NCBI GenBank assembly: GCA_963810095.1
Contig: CAWEMM010000010.1
Location: 192,001 to 256,000 of the forward strand
Origin: an uncultured Chloroflexia bacterium
GTDB taxonomy: Bacteria > Chloroflexota > Anaerolineae > CG2-30-64-16
Direction of reading: 5' to 3'
DNA: 64,000 nucleotides
The notes below the pieces were generated by a model. That model did no database searches and was not told the DNA's origin. It saw only the letters and a program-made list of their open reading frames with translations. Made by a program: the position numbers and the translations under genes. This document shows positions 1 through 15,740 of this stretch, in pieces. The first letter of the stretch is position 1; every line of letters starts with the position of its first letter.

Positions 1-791
1 ATATCGACCCGGCCCACGCCGTGCTTGCCGCCGATCGCATTGAGCGCCGCGACCAGGTCGATCGGACCCATCGCCTGGCCGTTGACGCGCTTGGGCACGC
101 CCTGATCGAAGTAGACTTCCACGTACTCCGCCTCGTCAGGGGCGGACTCCGGGCTTTGGGTCAGCTGGAACATGTCTTCCTTGGGCTCGTTCCACGGGTC
201 CTCGAGCCCGCCGCCCTCGTGGCTCAGGTGCCACAGGTTGCGATCGCGGCTGTAGATCGACTTGATCGTCGCCGTGACCGGAACGTTGTGCTCGGCGGCG
301 TACTTCAGCGCGTCCTCGCGGCTGCGGATGTGCCACTCGCGCCAGGGAGCGATGATCTTCAGCTTGGGGTTGAGCGCCATGACGGTCAGCTCGAAGCGGA
401 CCTGGTCGTTGCCCTTGCCCGTGGCGCCGTGCGACACGGCGTCAGCGCCTTCCATGGCAGCGATCTCGACCATCTTCTTCGCGATCAGGGGGCGGGCGAA
501 GGAGGTGCCGAGAAGGTAATCGCGCTCGTAGATCGCGCCGGCCTTGAGGGTGGGGTAAATGTATTCGGTGATGAACTCCTCGCGCAGGTCATCGATGTAC
601 AGCTTGCTGGCGCCCGAGGCCAACGCCTTGGCCTCCAGTCCCGACAGCTCTTCTTCCTGGCCGAGGTTGGCGCAGAAGCAGATCACCTCGCAGTCGTAGT
701 TCTCGACGAGCCACGGGACGATGCACGAGGTGTCGAGCCCGCCCGAATAGGCGAGCACGACTTTCGATACCGACTTCTTAGCAGCGGACAT
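1..791 (-). CDS. argG: Argininosuccinate synthase (5' part; runs off left edge)
   Basis: Manual translation from ATG at 791: [28 protein letters not shown]..., later [13 protein letters not shown]; AAGGAG RBS upstream. Confidence 0.97.
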
Positions 792-905: not shown

Positions 906-1931
906 TTAACGGGAAAGATTGATGACATCGCGCAGCATTGCAGCGGCCGTGGGAACCGGGCCGCGCTCGTCCACCTTGAACTGCTGGAGCCCCATGATGT
1001 CGGTGTCGAATACGATGCCCATCTCCCAGCCCGATACGCTGGCGAGGAAATCGTCTTTCGGCAGCCACTTCGGCTCGACAGAGAAATGGAACCCGTCGCC
1101 GGCCTTCTCGGCCGTGGCGACGAGCTTCACGACCTTGCCCCGGGCCGCGCCCTCTACGATCTGCTCGGGCGTGATGTGGGTGATGCCCTCCAGCGGGCGC
1201 ACGTCGTTGAGCGTGGCCGGGACGCCCAGGATGCTGTTGGCGATGATGACCAGCTTGTTGGCCGTGTCCCACCCTTCCACGTCGAGCGAGGGGTCGGCCT
1301 CGGCAATGCCGTCGAGCTGCGCCTGCTTGAGCGCCTTCCCATAGGTGCCGCCCAGGCTCATGGCTTCGAGAATGGAGTTGCTGGTCGAGTTGAAGATGCC
1401 GCGCAGGCCCCGGATGTCGCAGCCGACGAGGTCGCGCCGCCCGATGTTGACCACCGGCAGCGCGCCGCAGACGGTGGCGCTGTAGGCAAAACCGACCCCC
1501 GCAGCCTGGGCGGCGCCCGTTAGCTCGGCGAACGCCAGCACAAGCGGCGCCTTATTCGCCAGCACCACGCCCATCCCCCGGCCGAGGGCCCGCCGCACGC
1601 AGCTCAGCCCCGGCTCGCCGTCTTTCAGGTTGACGGGCGACGCCTCGAGCAGCAGGTCCGCCGCGACCCGCTCGACCGCCTCCAGCGCCGTATCGAGGGC
1701 TTGTGCGCCGGGGAAGGAAGCGACGCCCTTGCCGCCCTGCTTGTGGGCCAGCAGCGCGTGCGGGTCGATGCCGCCGTTATTGACCACCGCGCCGGAGGAG
1801 TCGGCCGCAGCCGTGAGGACCAGCTCCAGCCCGTACCGATCGGCGAGCAAGCCGGCCTTCTCGTTCATCAGCTGGAGGAACGCCCGGCCGACATTCCCCA
1901 CCCCGATCAGCGCCACTCGGATCTGTTTCAT
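906..1931 (-). CDS. hom: Homoserine dehydrogenase family protein (standalone, no ACT domain)
   Basis: GVGNVG Rossmann motif, VLANKAPL, ATVCGALP, GIAEADPSLDVEGWDTANKL. Confidence 0.85.
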   Translation of the reverse strand: MKQIRVALIGVGNVGRAFLQLMNEKAGLLADRYGLELVLTAAADSSGAVVNNGGIDPHALLAHKQGGKGVASFPGAQALDTALEAVERVAADLLLEASPVNLKDGEPGLSCVRRALGRGMGVVLANKAPLVLAFAELTGAAQAAGVGFAYSATVCGALPVVNIGRRDLVGCDIRGLRGIFNSTSNSILEAMSLGGTYGKALKQAQLDGIAEADPSLDVEGWDTANKLVIIANSILGVPATLNDVRPLEGITHITPEQIVEGAARGKVVKLVATAEKAGDGFHFSVEPKWLPKDDFLASVSGWEMGIVFDTDIMGLQQFKVDERGPVPTAAAMLRDVINLSR

Positions 1932-2005: not shown

Positions 2006-2539
2006 CTATGTCCGAACGGCGAAAGCCGGCCGCAGATTGATCATGCCGACCGTTTCTGCCTCGGGCTCGCGCAGATTCATCAGAACCGCGATCTCGTCGC
2101 ACTTGTCGAACTTCGAGCAGTACACGCATTCCTGCCAGATCTTCGGCGTGATCGTCCAGCGGTCGACGGTGGCAAAGCCGCACACGTTGAAGAAGCCTTC
2201 GTTCAGCGTCAGCGCACAGATCTTGTCGTACCCGGCATCGCGCGCCGCGATGACCAGCGCCTCCACCAGCCGCTTCCCCAGCCCCGTCCCGCGGGTCTCG
2301 GGCGCCACGGCCAGCGACCGCAGCTCGGTCAGGCGGGGGGTCAGCGGCACGTTCGACCCGCAGCCGACCACCCTTCCCCCGTGCGTGGCGACCAGGAACC
2401 CCGGCAGCGCCCGGCGAATCTGCTCGGCCGTGCGCGTCAGCATCAGGTCCTGTGCCGCGTAGCCGTTGACCAACCCCAGGATGCCGTCGATGTCGCTCTC
2501 TTTCGCAGCGCGAATGTGAATATCCATGACAAGTCCCAT
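2006..2539 (-). CDS. argA: Short GNAT-type N-acetylglutamate synthase
   Basis: GNAT motif ELRSLAVAPETRGTGLGKRLV, C-terminal KIWQECVYC..CDE; position inside the arg operon; start 2539 or 2527. Confidence 0.85.
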   Translation of the reverse strand: MGLVMDIHIRAAKESDIDGILGLVNGYAAQDLMLTRTAEQIRRALPGFLVATHGGRVVGCGSNVPLTPRLTELRSLAVAPETRGTGLGKRLVEALVIAARDAGYDKICALTLNEGFFNVCGFATVDRWTITPKIWQECVYCSKFDKCDEIAVLMNLREPEAETVGMINLRPAFAVRT

Positions 2540-2541
2540 AG

Positions 2542-3756
2542 CTAAAGTTCTGCGAAGACCGCAGTCAGTCGCTCGATCAGCGTGTCGATCTCCGGCAGGC
2601 TGATGATGAGCGGCGGCACCAGCCGCAGCGTGTTCGGCCCCGCATTGACCAGCAGCAGGCCGTGCCGGTAGCCCGCCTGGACCACGTCGTTGGCAGGAAT
2701 GGTCAGGTCGGCGCCGATCATCAGCCCCTTCCCGCGCACCTCGGTGATGCACGGCGAGTTGATCTCTTCCAGGCGTTCCATGAGATACGCGCCCTTCTGG
2801 GTCACGCCTGCCAGGAAGTCGGGTTGATTCACCGTGTCGAGTACGACATTGGCCACGGCTGCGACGAGCGGCGAAGCGGCGAACGTGCTGCCGTGATCGC
2901 CCGGGTGCATGACCTGGGCCACCCGCTCGGTCATTAGCACCGCGCCCATGGGCAGGCCGCCGGCGAGCGGCTTGGCGCTGGTCAGCAGGTCGGGCGTCAC
3001 CCCGTAGCCCTGGTGGGCCCACAGCGTCCCGGTCCGCCCCAGGCCGCACTGGACCTCGTCAAAGATCAAGAGGGCGTCGTGCCGGTCGCACAGGTCGCGC
3101 AGGCCCTGCAGGAACTCGGGCGAGGCCGGGTGTACCCCGCCCTCACCCTGCACCGGCTCCACGATCACTGCGCACACGTCGTCGCCGATGGCATCTGCCG
3201 CGCTCGGCAGGTCGTTGAACTCGGCAAAGCGCACGCCGGGCATCAGGGGCCGGAAGGCCGCCTGGTACTTCTCACGGGGGGTGGCGGCCAGCGCGCCGAA
3301 GGTGCGGCCGTGAAAGGCGTTACTGAACGCGACGATGGCGCTCTTGCCGGAGGACTGCTTGCCGGGACCGGAGGTGTCAGCTTGACCGGCACGGTCATAC
3401 GCCCACTTGCGCGCGAACTTGAACGCGCCCTCGTTGGCCTCGGCCCCCGAGTTGCAGAAAAAGACCCGGTCGGCGAAGCTGCTGCGGCACAGGGCGGCCG
3501 CTAATTGGGCCTGGGGTGCCGTGTGATACAGGTTGGAAACGTGCCAGAGCTTGCCGGCCTGCTCGGCGAGCGCGGCCACGACTGCAGGGTGTGCGTGCCC
3601 TAGCGCGTTTACGGCAATCCCCGCCACGCAGTCGAGGTAGCTGTTGCCTTCGGTGTCATACACCCAGCACCCCTCGCCCCGGTCCAGCACGAAAGGCGGC
3701 CGGGCGTAGGTCTGCAGGACGTGGGCCTGTTCGAGTTCTATCGTGTTATTTGTCAT
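2542..3756 (-). CDS. argD: Acetylornithine aminotransferase
   Basis: Class III PLP motifs FCNSGAEANE, FHGRT, DEVQCGLGRTG, SAKPLAGG; RBS before ATG at 3756. Confidence 0.95.
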   Translation of the reverse strand: MTNNTIELEQAHVLQTYARPPFVLDRGEGCWVYDTEGNSYLDCVAGIAVNALGHAHPAVVAALAEQAGKLWHVSNLYHTAPQAQLAAALCRSSFADRVFFCNSGAEANEGAFKFARKWAYDRAGQADTSGPGKQSSGKSAIVAFSNAFHGRTFGALAATPREKYQAAFRPLMPGVRFAEFNDLPSAADAIGDDVCAVIVEPVQGEGGVHPASPEFLQGLRDLCDRHDALLIFDEVQCGLGRTGTLWAHQGYGVTPDLLTSAKPLAGGLPMGAVLMTERVAQVMHPGDHGSTFAASPLVAAVANVVLDTVNQPDFLAGVTQKGAYLMERLEEINSPCITEVRGKGLMIGADLTIPANDVVQAGYRHGLLLVNAGPNTLRLVPPLIISLPEIDTLIERLTAVFAEL

Positions 3757-3815: not shown

Positions 3816-4583
3816 CTATCCCTTGATCACCGCCGTTCCGCCATCGTTAGCCAGGCCGGCCAGGTCGGTAATGACGGCCTGGTACACGCCGCTCTGCACT
3901 GCTTCGGTGGCCGAGCGGACCTTGGGAATCATGCCGCCGGTAATGTGGCCGTCTGCGATGAGGCCGTCGATCTGCTTAACGGTCAGCGCGCGCATGGTCC
4001 GGCCGGTGACCTGTACGCCGGGCACGTTGCTGACGAAGACGAGCTTCACTGCCTCGACCGCCTTCGCGACCCCCGCCGCCACGTGGTCCGCATTGACGTT
4101 GTATCCCAGCCCGTCCTCGCCCAGCGAGACGGGCGAGATGACGGGGGTCAGGCCCAGGTCGAGCAGCTGCAGCAGCGCTTCGCCGTTGACCGCCTGCACC
4201 GCGCCCACCCGGCCCAGGTCGCGGCCGTCGACCGTCAGCGGGGCCACGCGCACGAGGCCCATGTCGACGCCGGATAACCCCAGCGCATCCACGCCCCCGT
4301 TGACGAGGTGGCGCACCAGCCGGGTGTTGACGACGCCGTTCAGCACCATCTCGACGAGCCGCAGGCTTTCGACCGACGTGGCGCGCAGCCCTTCGACGGT
4401 CTCGAAGCTCACGCCGAGCTGGCCGTGCAGGTCGGCGATTTCCTTGCCGCCGCCGTGAACCACGATCACGGCATAGTCGGCCAGGAGGGACTTCACGGCT
4501 GCGACAAAGCCCGTCAGGAACGCTTCATCTTCAACCTGGTTGCCGCCGATCTTGAGGACCAGCACATGTTTTTCGTTCGGCAT
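3816..4583 (-). CDS. argB: Acetylglutamate kinase
   Basis: VLKIGG, VVHGGG, NVNAD, GGMIPKV. Confidence 0.95.
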   Translation of the reverse strand: MPNEKHVLVLKIGGNQVEDEAFLTGFVAAVKSLLADYAVIVVHGGGKEIADLHGQLGVSFETVEGLRATSVESLRLVEMVLNGVVNTRLVRHLVNGGVDALGLSGVDMGLVRVAPLTVDGRDLGRVGAVQAVNGEALLQLLDLGLTPVISPVSLGEDGLGYNVNADHVAAGVAKAVEAVKLVFVSNVPGVQVTGRTMRALTVKQIDGLIADGHITGGMIPKVRSATEAVQSGVYQAVITDLAGLANDGGTAVIKG

Positions 4584-4634: not shown

Positions 4635-5669
4635 CTACAGCAGCGCGAGCTTCTCGTCGCAGCCGAGCATGATGTTCATGTTCTGCACTGCCTGACCCGC
4701 CGCGCCCTTGATCAGGTTGTCGATGGCGGCCGTCACGATCAGCAGGTTCGTGCCCGGCACAAACGTCAGCCCGATGGCGCAGAAGTTGGTGTGCACCGCA
4801 TGGGCCAGCGTCGCCACCTGGCCCGGCTTCAGCAGGTGGACGAACGGCTCGAACTCGTACGCCTCGACGTATGCCTCGCGCACCTGCGCTTCCGTCACGC
4901 CGGCCGGCAGATTGACATAAATAGTAGAGAGGATGCCCCGGTTGACGGGCAGGAGGTGGGGCGAGAAGACGACCTGCAGAGGCGCGGCCCCGTTCGTGGG
5001 GCCCACCAGCAGGCCCAGCTCCTGCTCCATCTCGGCCAGGTGCCGGTGCGTGCGGCCGATGCTATACGGGCTCATGTTCTCGTTCGCTTCGACGAAATGC
5101 GTCTTGAGCGACGGCGACCGGCCCGCGCCCGAGATGCCCGACTTGCTGTCGGCGATGACGGTGCCGTGCAGCCAGCCCGCCTGAGCCAGCGGCGCGAGGC
5201 CGAGGATCACGCTCGTGGGATAGCAGCCGGGATTCGCCACCAGGTTTGCGGCGCCGATCTCGTCCCGGTGCAGCTCGGGGAGGCCGTAGACCGCCTCGGC
5301 CAGCGCTTCGGGCTCCATGTGCCCGTGGCCGTACCAGGCTTCGTAAGCCTGGGCGTCGTGGATCCGGTAGTCGGCGCTGAGGTCGACGACCCGTGCGCCC
5401 GCCCGCCGGGCCGCTGCGACAGGCCCCTGGGCGGCCACGTGGGGCAGGCAGCAGAAAACCACGTCGGCGCCCGCCAGGTCGGCATCTTCGGCACGCACCA
5501 GGATCTCTTCGCCAAGGAACGGCGGCACGGGGAACACGTCGCCGAAACGCTGGCCGGCCGAGTTCTCGGAGGTGAGCCAGGCGATCTCGGTCGCCGGATG
5601 GCGTGCGAGAATCTTCAGCAGTTCCAACCCGGTATAGCCCGTTGCACCGATGATGCCGATCTTGACCAT
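4635..5669 (-). CDS. argC: N-acetyl-gamma-glutamyl-phosphate reductase
   Basis: GATGYTG, DLSADYR, ANPGCYPT, DNLIKGAAGQAVQN. Confidence 0.97.
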   Translation of the reverse strand: MVKIGIIGATGYTGLELLKILARHPATEIAWLTSENSAGQRFGDVFPVPPFLGEEILVRAEDADLAGADVVFCCLPHVAAQGPVAAARRAGARVVDLSADYRIHDAQAYEAWYGHGHMEPEALAEAVYGLPELHRDEIGAANLVANPGCYPTSVILGLAPLAQAGWLHGTVIADSKSGISGAGRSPSLKTHFVEANENMSPYSIGRTHRHLAEMEQELGLLVGPTNGAAPLQVVFSPHLLPVNRGILSTIYVNLPAGVTEAQVREAYVEAYEFEPFVHLLKPGQVATLAHAVHTNFCAIGLTFVPGTNLLIVTAAIDNLIKGAAGQAVQNMNIMLGCDEKLALL

Positions 5670-5745: not shown

Positions 5746-5795
5746 AAAAAACCAGCACGCGGGCCGGGTGCTCACCCGGGCCTGGGTGCTGGTTT
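5746..5795 (-). terminator. Intrinsic terminator (attenuator) in the arg leader
   Basis: Minus strand aaaccagcac-ccaggcccgggtgagcacccggcccgc-gtgctggtttttt: long GC stem plus U-tract, ~75 nt before argC. Confidence 0.85.
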
Positions 5796-5845
5796 GCCTA
5801 GTTCTGTCGTAGACGTTCGGCTCGCGCGCTCCTGCGGACCGGGTG

Positions 5846-5899
5846 CTAACCCGCTCTGATAAGGATACGACGACGAGGGAAGCGAAGGCTGATAGCCAA
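5846..5899 (-). CDS. Putative arg operon leader peptide MAISLRFPRRRILIRAG
   Basis: GGAG RBS 5 nt before TTG; 5 Arg codons including CGT-CGT-CGT; stop lies just upstream of the terminator. Confidence 0.75.
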   Translation of the reverse strand: MAISLRFPRRRILIRAG

Positions 5900-5994
5900 T
5901 GTAACTCCGAACGCTTCAATATGATGCGGGCGATGGGTGACTCGCAAAGTCACACGCCATCCGCAGGATGGCGCACCCTCTTTTGACGGACGGG

Positions 5995-12807: not shown

Positions 12808-13890
12808 TCAACCTCCCAACGTCTGCCCCAGGGCGACGATATCCGAATGCACGCCGGCCGCCGCCGCTTCCACCCCTGCGCCCCGCCCCTGCAGCACGAG
12901 CGGCGTGTCGGGGTAGTAGCGGGTGCGGAAGGCGACCAGGTTGTCGTTGCCGCGCAGCAAGCCGAGTGGGCTGTCCAGCGGCACAGCTTTCACGCCGACG
13001 CTCGCACGGCCGTCCTGCAGGCTGACCGCATAGCGCAGCGTGGCGCCGGTCGATGCCGCTTCGCGCGCTTGCTCGGCGCACTCGTCGTCCAAATCGGACA
13101 GCCGGTCGAGGAACTCTGCCATGGGCAGCCCGGCGAGGGCCGGCGGCACCAACGATTGGATGCCTACCTCGAGCAGTTCCATCTGCCAGCCGATGGTGCG
13201 CGCCAGGATCAGGGCCTTGCGTGCAACGTCCAGGCCCCCCAGGTCGATGCGGGGATCCGGCTCGGTGTAGCCGCGCGCCATCGCCTCGCGCACCTGGCCC
13301 GAGAACGGTTGGCCCTCCTGGATGCCCGTGTAGAGGAAGCCGAGCGTCCCGCTCAGCGCCCCTTCCACCGAGGCGATCACGTCGTCGGCCCGCATCAGCC
13401 CGAGGGTGGCCTCGATGATGGGCACCGCCGACCCGACCGTCGACTCGTAACGGAAGCGGCGGCTGCCCGCAAGCGAGTTGAACACTGCCTGGGGCCCGGT
13501 GAGTGGAATCTTGTTCGCCGTGACCGCGCCATAGCCGCGCTGGACGGCCAGCAGCAGCGCGGGCACCGTGGCCTCGCTGGCGGTCACGTCCACGACGATG
13601 GCGCGGTCCTGCCCGACCAGGTCCACGATCGCAGGGAGGTCCTGCTGGGGCGAACCGTACTCCGTGTTGGCGAACGAGTCACCCGCATGCTTGGCGGCCG
13701 ACACCGTGCGGAGCACCTCGGGCCACACGCCCTTTTCGTCGACGACGGCGCCGTCGCGGTCACACCAGGCGGCGATGCTCAGTGCGAGCGCATCACGCTC
13801 GGCGTGCAGCCCTGCCGAGCCGAGCAACTGGCGCACCAGCGCGCGGCCAACCTTGCCGGCGCCGAAGATGATCAACGGGACTCTTTTCAT
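12808..13890 (-). CDS. hom: Homoserine dehydrogenase (ThrA-like HSDH domain)
   Basis: GAGKVG, VTANK, YESTVGSAVP, SGTLG, GYTEPDPRIDLGGLDVARKALIL. Confidence 0.92.
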   Translation of the reverse strand: MKRVPLIIFGAGKVGRALVRQLLGSAGLHAERDALALSIAAWCDRDGAVVDEKGVWPEVLRTVSAAKHAGDSFANTEYGSPQQDLPAIVDLVGQDRAIVVDVTASEATVPALLLAVQRGYGAVTANKIPLTGPQAVFNSLAGSRRFRYESTVGSAVPIIEATLGLMRADDVIASVEGALSGTLGFLYTGIQEGQPFSGQVREAMARGYTEPDPRIDLGGLDVARKALILARTIGWQMELLEVGIQSLVPPALAGLPMAEFLDRLSDLDDECAEQAREAASTGATLRYAVSLQDGRASVGVKAVPLDSPLGLLRGNDNLVAFRTRYYPDTPLVLQGRGAGVEAAAAGVHSDIVALGQTLGG

Positions 13891-13907
13891 AGTTCCAGCT
13901 TTCGAAC

Positions 13908-13994
13908 GGGACGCAGATTGAACCGATTGGACTGATTGACCTGATCGAAGGGTAGGGATCATCTACATCAGTCTTATCAGTCCGATCAGCGTCC
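13908..13994. repeat. GGGACGCAGAT-family palindrome
   Basis: gggacgcagattgaaccgatt...atcagtccgatcagcgtcc, abutting the lysC stop. Confidence 0.75.
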
Positions 13995-15434: not shown

Positions 15435-15740
15435 ACGAAAAAGCTCCTCGCCGTTGGGGCGAGGAGCTTCGCGGTTCCACCCAATATTATCCTGCCGGCA
15501 CGTCTCGCGTAAGCAGGCATCTTACAGAGCCGTAACGTGGCTGGGCGGAGCGCCATACACTCCCCGGTCGGCCATCGTCGTGAAGGGCCGTCGGCCGGAT
15601 TTGTGGCGCTCGCTCTCGGGGGGTTTTCGGTGGTTGCCGGGCGAAGGCGGGTTTACACTCGTCGGCTTTCAGCCGATGACCCGCCGTCTCTGCCGCCGTT
15701 TCGCCGCCTACTCGTCCCGATCGACGCTTTCGGTATCAAA
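15435..15740 (-). ncRNA. T-box riboswitch leader (likely Thr, ACC specifier) with terminator
   Basis: Stem I AGTA, AGAGA and GCTGAAAG motifs; specifier loop gaaaaccc; T-box aatattGGGTGGAACCGCG at 15470-15488; terminator aagctcctcgcc/ggcgaggagctt plus U-tract. Confidence 0.9.

Follow-up and report, generated by a model that had tools for sequence, protein, structure and literature searches.

A candidate ribosome-mediated arginine attenuator ahead of the argC operon in Anaerolineae

Arginine biosynthesis is a textbook case of repressor control, exercised by ArgR or AhrC, with leader-peptide attenuation being the textbook device for other amino acids. The arginine operon in the window (the whole stretch of DNA analyzed here, 64,000 nucleotides in length) raises the question of how such an operon might be governed in a genome in which that repressor is not detected. 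The operon has the order argC-argB-argD-GNAT-hom-argG, with the leader considered here directly upstream of argC, and comprises the following genes, each given with its best-scoring model:

4635-5669, minus strand: argC (TIGR01850, 389 bits; cut-off 233.6)
3816-4583, minus strand: argB (TIGR00761, 192.7 bits; cut-off 151.3)
2542-3756, minus strand: argD (TIGR00707, 494.6 bits; cut-off 410)
2006-2530, minus strand: short GNAT, argA-like (NF005840, 145 bits, slightly below the cut-off of 154)
906-1931, minus strand: homoserine dehydrogenase-like gene (NF004912, 304.8 bits, below the cut-off of 373)
1-791, minus strand: argG, running off the window (NF001770, 407 bits; cut-off 334)

The short GNAT protein is probably an N-acetylglutamate synthase. 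Beyond argG, outside the window, there follows an argJ-like frame (named from its translation), and argH and argF are located elsewhere in the genome. Besides the homoserine dehydrogenase-like gene of the operon, the window holds a second such gene at 12808-13962.

Two common modes of control were considered and set aside. A search of this genome (88.5% complete) detected neither of the ArgR domains, which led us to reject ArgR as the regulator of the operon. Likewise, the absence of a T-box at the leader, noted in an earlier reading of the sequence by itself (hereafter the sequence-only reading), was borne out by an Rfam scan at E<=10, which returned four unrelated weak hits and no RF00230 there; with no match at the leader, a T-box or another Rfam family was discarded as its identity. 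The same kind of scan picked up a T-box elsewhere in the window (15452-15733, minus strand; RF00230, E 9e-10, 48.7 bits), which precedes aspartate kinase-hom-asd genes; it falls below the gathering score of 93 and is missed at that threshold.

Layout of the leader and its conservation in the family

The leader comprises the following elements, several of which are predictions from folding or comparison:

6024-5995, minus strand: sigma70-type promoter (TTGACA-18-TAAACT, extended -10 with TG present, 10/12 match)
5978-5929 (5984-5929 in its wider delimitation), minus strand: 5' hairpin region ahead of the leader Shine-Dalgarno sequence (SD), with a variable stem and conserved flanks in relatives; degenerate here
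5908-5905, minus strand: leader SD, GGAG, inside the 5' strand (5914-5905) of a putative SD-sequestering helix
5899-5846, minus strand: leader uORF, TTG start, 17 codons, peptide MAISLRFPRRRILIRAG
5875-5867, minus strand: putative control codons, three consecutive CGT Arg, with the conserved Arg-Phe-Pro just before
5853-5840, minus strand: small hairpin across the stop codon, the inner part of the predicted protector
5845-5837, minus strand: putative antiterminator strand (segment 2), which lies under the ribosome when the latter is at the stop codon
5829-5821, minus strand: 3' strand of the predicted protector stem, partner of the Pro-Arg codons
5820-5813, minus strand: 3' strand of the SD-sequestering helix, partner of the leader SD region
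5795-5746, minus strand: predicted intrinsic terminator with U run (from folding and conservation)
5779-5773, minus strand: terminator segment taken by the antiterminator strand in folding models
5772-5756, minus strand: 17-nt near-duplication within the terminator, only in this genome

Read along the minus strand, the promoter is followed by a 95-nt untranslated stretch, the GGAG, the TTG-started uORF, the terminator and, 76 nt beyond it, the ATG of argC (5669). The five Arg codons of the uORF are CGC, CGT three times and AGA. The promoter, the GGAG, the uORF with its CGT triplet run and the terminator had all been proposed by the sequence-only reading, and each was found where it had placed them on the minus strand. 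Scans for single sites perform near chance (promoter, 1 against 0.3 expected; terminator, 1 against 0.7 expected), and the fold of the whole leader beats 200 of 200 shuffles (z -3.27). As far as comparative evidence goes, what settles that the element is real is its conservation at all 35 loci of the host's family. This sample derives from 37 genomes searched, 34 of which gave argC with upstream DNA; G004, G028 and G032 were left out, as a full argC match was not obtained from them. The core R-F-P-R-[R/P/A]-R, the GGAG, the promoter, the hairpins and the terminator are kept in 35/35 loci (the pattern applied fixes the residues of the core, with no locus dropped), and the promoter counterpart, TTGACA-17/18-(-10), occupies the same position in every one of them. 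Blastn detected no further copy of the leader elsewhere in the genome, and none was seen by eye upstream of argH or argF.

Many nucleotides of the leader are invariant, and the hairpin with fixed flanks ahead of the SD recurs in 27-31 of the 35 loci. These features would suit a riboswitch or protein-bound leader in which the RNA structure itself regulates and the uORF merely results from conservation of the pairing. We regard this as highly improbable, given that the variable columns fall at the third codon position in five cases and at the other two positions in one case each, that insertions keep the frame, that the unrelated RNA of other families still encodes in-frame Arg clusters (see below), and that the leader matches no Rfam family. 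The changes in the uORF respect its coding: the first Arg is encoded by four codons, Phe by both of its codons and Pro by three; the start codon is GTG at 21 loci, TTG at seven and ATG at seven; and the core is preceded by additional codons (1, 5, 10 or 15) in seven loci, with no frameshift among them. The length of the uORF ranges from 15 to 31 codons, and the C-terminus is free.

The 5' hairpin deserves separate mention. Its single-stranded flanks are fixed, the 5' flank in 31/35 and the 3' flank in 27/35 family loci, and it might serve for pausing, for protein binding or as an alternative pairing partner of the start region. A conserved ATG in the 5' region was rejected as a second start, as it falls in frames 0, 1 and 2 at 10, 11 and 7 loci, respectively, and is missing from seven.

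Within the run, the choice of codon is strongly biased. CGT accounts for 96 of the 101 Arg codons in the family's run, compared with a share of 8.5% among the Arg codons in long reading frames of the genome. ARAGORN recovered tRNA-Arg genes with the anticodons GCG, CCG, TCG, CCT and TCT in this genome and none with ACG; because the GCG species was found and ACG was not, decoding of CGU probably relies on G:U wobble. The missing ACG species suggests that the lineage does not use inosine wobble for Arg. The preference for CGT is not explained by the protector stem, since two of the third-position U's are unpaired in it, as drawn.

The same conservation brings in a second way in which the leader might sense its ligand. 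In a leader that does nothing but count codons, an invariant Phe-Pro would not be expected, and R-F-P is invariant in 35/35 family loci despite the synonymous changes. One possibility is that the RNA switch is the same and that the nascent peptide co-senses, the aromatic-Pro-Arg motif slowing or arresting the ribosome in a ligand-dependent manner, as in an arrest peptide; the signal could then be an amplified arginine shortage or a pathway intermediate (ornithine or citrulline, for example). Recurrence of [FY]-P-[RK] in rule-picked leaders of five further families, and the existence of leaders with just one or two Arg within a Pro-rich core, point in this direction. Against it, the length (15-31 aa) and C-terminus of the peptide are free, Arg-only cores devoid of Phe-Pro occur in many families, and the same codons are also constrained by the protector pairing; further, a stall at high arginine of the fungal type would have the wrong sign, as it would switch the operon on. 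We consider this version unlikely, and return to it below with the folding models.

Competing pairings and the position of the ribosome

Taking these features together, we propose that the leader is, quite probably, a transcription attenuator of the classical, ribosome-mediated kind, which monitors charged tRNA-Arg and takes the role of ArgR in governing the argC operon. The elements recognizable in sequence are all present, namely, a promoter, an SD, a conserved uORF, an Arg run, competing pairings and a terminator. With ample arginine, the ribosome would reach the stop codon and cover the antiterminator strand (5845-5837), allowing the terminator to fold. If the ribosome is released, or if there is no translation, the protector stem would lock the antiterminator strand and bury the leader SD, so that termination would be the default and re-initiation would be limited. 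When arginine is short, the ribosome would pause on the CGU codons and melt the protector, and the freed strand could then capture the loop of the terminator and its flanks when these emerge from the polymerase, giving read-through into argC. The switch is expected to work kinetically.

The pairings behind this scheme were examined in a structure alignment of 28 of the 35 family loci. In the joint structure, which combines the SD helix, the Pro-Arg stem, the stop hairpin and the terminator, 91% of cells are paired across the 28 loci. Seven pairs covary, with 17 cells changed on both sides, levels reached by 0/500 shuffles for cells and 8/500 for pairs, kinship being ignored in this comparison. 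The terminator pairs are 96-100% kept in the aligned loci, and the SD-sequestering helix has both-side changes in four of its eight pairs. The third position of the Pro codon and its partner form UA in 16 loci, CG in four and UG in three and are unpaired in five; this covariation implies that both the peptide and the pairing are kept. Based on these patterns, the main protector is predicted to be a long stem, more than the small stop hairpin, formed by the Pro-Arg codons with 5829-5821 and by the SD region with 5820-5813. The antiterminator helix is 88% paired within the family and lacks covariation (298/500 shuffles score as high), which may arise because each of its strands has two partners. 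The covarying stems that the sequence-only reading had suggested looking for are seen in the protector and SD helix, with no covariation in the antiterminator. In other families, where an alignment-free comparison with duplexes from leaders of different families was made, the signal was modest, the cognate antiterminator duplex being the best in 6/41 loci and in the top tenth in 17/41.

The trp-like arrangement put forward in that reading needs some refinement. The segment CACCCGG (5845-5839) can, as proposed, pair locally at the stop codon (within 5853-5840) or with CCGGGTG (5779-5773); the parts that require revision are the protector, which is the longer stem, and the target of the antiterminator strand, which in the models invades the terminator loop and flanks and not just the 5' arm. 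That CCGGGTG falls 5' in the terminator is due solely to the 17-nt near-duplication in this genome; its equivalent in the 27 other aligned loci is the loop and the start of the 3' arm. The near-duplication itself is missing from the 27 aligned relatives and from related contigs of three sequencing runs; seven runs were matched, all as contigs at a 0.05-0.10 share, and the four that were looked at came from relatives. It could represent real tuning or an assembly error; argH is split into two frames in the same assembly.

We modeled the effect of ribosome position by letting only the RNA 3' of the ribosome fold, with the transcript cut at the decision point (for this genome's leader, ahead of its duplication) and the antiterminator taken as formed at P>0.5. 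With the last Arg in the A site, the antiterminator formed in 24/35 family loci for a footprint of A+12 and in 29/35 for A+15; with the first Arg in the A site, it formed in 16/35. It formed in 1/35 loci when no ribosome was placed and in 0/35 with the ribosome at the stop, the last value being partly by construction, as the footprint covers the strand. The best modeled stall site lies 2-3 codons beyond the Arg run, which counts against a reading by hungry Arg codons and for participation of the nascent peptide. Of the 11 loci failing at the last Arg, nine carry another Arg 2-4 codons on (six of these nine belong to one genus), as do six of the 24 passing loci, and some Arg codon supports the antiterminator in 34/35. 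In the full leader of this genome, the antiterminator probability is 0.98-0.99 with the ribosome on Arg9 or Arg11, drops to 0.33 when it stands two codons further on, and is 0 both at the stop and without a ribosome, a profile that reflects the duplication, which supplies partners for both halves of the stop hairpin.

When pairing across the ribosome is allowed, at equilibrium and with whole leaders, a switch is seen in only 17-18 of the 35 loci. In this genome's leader, the full-length terminator always wins at equilibrium, so that the switch, if it operates, must be kinetic. In other families, freeing the terminator was more difficult when the ribosome occupied the last Arg than when it was at the stop in 30/41 loci, and easier in 5/41.

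Arginine leaders and ArgR across the class

Among named records, the nearest argC matches come from Anaerolineae, Anaerolineaceae and Caldilineaceae (52-57% identity), and a leader of this kind is present in three of them, which probably places the host in the class Anaerolineae (Chloroflexota). To survey its spread, 77 argC loci outside the family were examined (four further matches were left out): 25 have no promoter-like site, seven have a promoter with no called terminator, and 45 have both. In these 45 leaders, a uORF was picked by a rule that is blind to arginine, albeit written after the sequences had been seen, and 35 of the picked uORFs, from 16 families, contain at least three Arg in six codons; 41 contain at least two. 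By comparison, the other two frames reach three Arg in 11/90 cases, and in 1,000 shuffles the count averages 7.6 and never exceeds 16 of 45. The Arg codons in these uORFs are CGC (62), CGT (45), AGG (41), CGA (33), CGG (16) and AGA (8); with all six in use, it is the amino acid that appears to be kept. Seven more families have the same design as judged by eye. The sequence-only reading had staked itself on conservation of the uORF and its Arg run, and these persist, as given above, in every family locus and in most of the leaders outside it.

For 13 loci with no argC leader of their own, the regions were re-fetched. In four, argC ends a lysine-type operon; in G089, a leader was found further upstream; and in the remaining re-fetched regions, a leader was not detected. 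At L200-L203 (families f11 and f17), argC is attached as the last gene to a lysY-lysZ-lysJ-lysK-type operon and lacks its own leader. In a further locus, L149 (G163, family f49), an in-frame TAG lies just ahead of the Phe-Pro-Arg core, at a position held by a sense codon in the relative G126; the leader might have decayed, the sequence might contain an error, or translation might begin at another start.

The ArgR N-terminal domain was found in one of 61 relatives, with 0/36 within the family, and in five of 151 genomes of the class, four of them above the cut-off. Apparently, then, the attenuator stands in for ArgR across the class Anaerolineae. The exclusion between ArgR and leader is not strict, because weak ArgR-domain hits occur in the leader-bearing genomes G089 and G131. 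Taken as a whole, the conservation of the uORF and structure, seen among kin that do not count as independent cases, and the near-absence of ArgR in the sampled class lend support to the arginine attenuator suggested by the sequence-only reading.

Leaders of this general type also precede other biosynthetic genes of the same genome, with His-, Phe/Tyr- and Lys-rich peptides ahead of hisZ-, aroH- and lysW-like genes (named from translations). This has a bearing on yet another explanation, that the arg leader is a general sensor of translation stress or antibiotic stalling of the R-x-R type and not an arginine sensor. R-x-R is present in the core, and such motifs mark drug-stalled leaders, for instance, the hflX uORF in the available part of PMC8632094. 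That the downstream genes are those of arginine biosynthesis, and that each of the other leaders in the genome fits its own amino acid, makes this explanation extremely doubtful.

Some of these other leaders merit individual description. The His-rich leader before the hisZ-like gene (G000:C12:632475, minus strand) and the Phe/Tyr-rich leader before a chorismate-mutase-like gene (C9:608723, minus strand) are each followed by a terminator. At G000:C12:212579-212990 (plus strand, outside the window), tandem leader-terminator units lie ahead of a lysW-lysX-lysY-lysZ-lysJ-type operon (translation-based names); both uORFs are Lys-rich with some Arg, and the second shares the hairpin layout after the uORF with the class-wide arg leaders. 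Promoter-uORF-terminator leaders with two Cys codons are found at G000:C9:704759 and C14:294328 (both minus strand), one of them before a cysteine-synthase-like gene; these are possible Cys attenuators.

The recurrence of Pro beside Arg raises the possibility of a dual attenuator in the manner of thr and ilv, which would sense both Arg and Pro in lineages that lack proB and make proline from ornithine. Among leaders outside the family, Pro adjoins Arg in 17 of 23 where the genome gave no proB versus 3 of 18 where proB was found, a post hoc comparison among non-independent kin; within family f49, a Pro-rich core is present in G126, which gave no proB, and absent from G084, which did. However, the prediction made in advance failed, in that the genomes with the FPRPR core (G008, G012 and G025), like the genome studied here, all have proB. 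Moreover, ornithine aminotransferase does not follow the pattern and is uninformative, and f46, G148, G108 and G038 are without both. Dual sensing was accordingly rejected for the host's family and is retained solely as a class-level alternative, itself quite improbable.

Beyond the codon-sensing attenuator that we favor, we offer a broader and rather speculative suggestion, namely, that in Anaerolineae a class-wide arginine attenuator replaced ArgR and that it incorporates the nascent aromatic-Pro-Arg in its sensor, which would tune or create the stall, making the device a hybrid of codon counting and arrest peptide. In proB-less lineages, such a hybrid may also respond to proline. If the attenuator reading is true, it fills the gap in arginine attenuation for a whole class in which only 5/151 sampled genomes have ArgR, and implies that attenuation is workable for a frequent amino acid. 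Natural variants are available by the dozen, differing in their Arg codons and in whether the core contains Pro, and including an SD-hiding helix; in a leader of less than 300 nt, they could be used to test the effects of codon choice and peptide context on sensitivity.

Comparison with known attenuators and arginine-responsive leaders

ArgR/AhrC repression and the T-box serve the same purpose for arg operons; the former was not found in this genome, nor the latter at this leader. Thermus thermophilus has a lysine leader-peptide attenuator, and in fungi the arginine attenuator peptide stalls the ribosome on high arginine via the peptide, a logic opposite to stalling at hungry codons. The literature searched yielded no leader-peptide attenuator of a bacterial arginine biosynthesis operon, and a prior mention in the supplements of surveys is possible: “arginine” does not occur in the main texts of PMC2965389, PMC4833913 and PMC9413887, the supplements of which could list such leaders. 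On present evidence, the arg leader would represent a known mechanism with an amino acid specificity, arginine, that we have not found described.

The classical leader-peptide attenuators named in the available part of PMC1183508 are those of trp, his, leu, thr, ilvGMEDA and ilvBN, as well as that of pheA. With these, the arg leader shares a uORF enriched in codons for the end product, a biased synonymous codon, competition among protector, antiterminator and terminator, and its position ahead of a biosynthetic operon. It departs from them, as they are described in that part of the source, in its predicted amino acid, arginine, which is absent from that list; in the antiterminator, which here would invade the terminator loop; in the covarying helix that buries the leader's own SD; and in the invariant Phe-Pro before the control codons in the host's family. 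Attenuators are also described for His in Firmicutes lacking HisR (available part of PMC9413887). Like these and the Thermus Lys attenuator, the arg leader is found outside Proteobacteria where the usual repressor or T-box is missing; those concern other amino acids and other phyla, and the likeness is one of description.

For Pseudomonas aeruginosa, a leader peptide ahead of carA has been mentioned in connection with pyrimidine-linked attenuation (PMC4997734, available part). The closest cases related to arginine are the fungal peptide and orf34/speFL, both of them different in target and logic. The fungal arginine attenuator peptide is likewise encoded by a uORF at arginine biosynthesis but is eukaryotic and translational (PMC8429421, available part). 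The leader orf34/speFL of Salmonella, located before speF, also has a uORF with consecutive Arg codons, whose decoding responds to arginine; it controls ornithine decarboxylase, and with it polyamines, via Rho, RBS unmasking and RNase G, and its nascent chain senses ornithine (available parts of PMC6386406 and 10.1101/604074). Unlike orf34/speFL as described in those sources, the leader reported here has a predicted intrinsic terminator and lies ahead of arginine biosynthesis genes.
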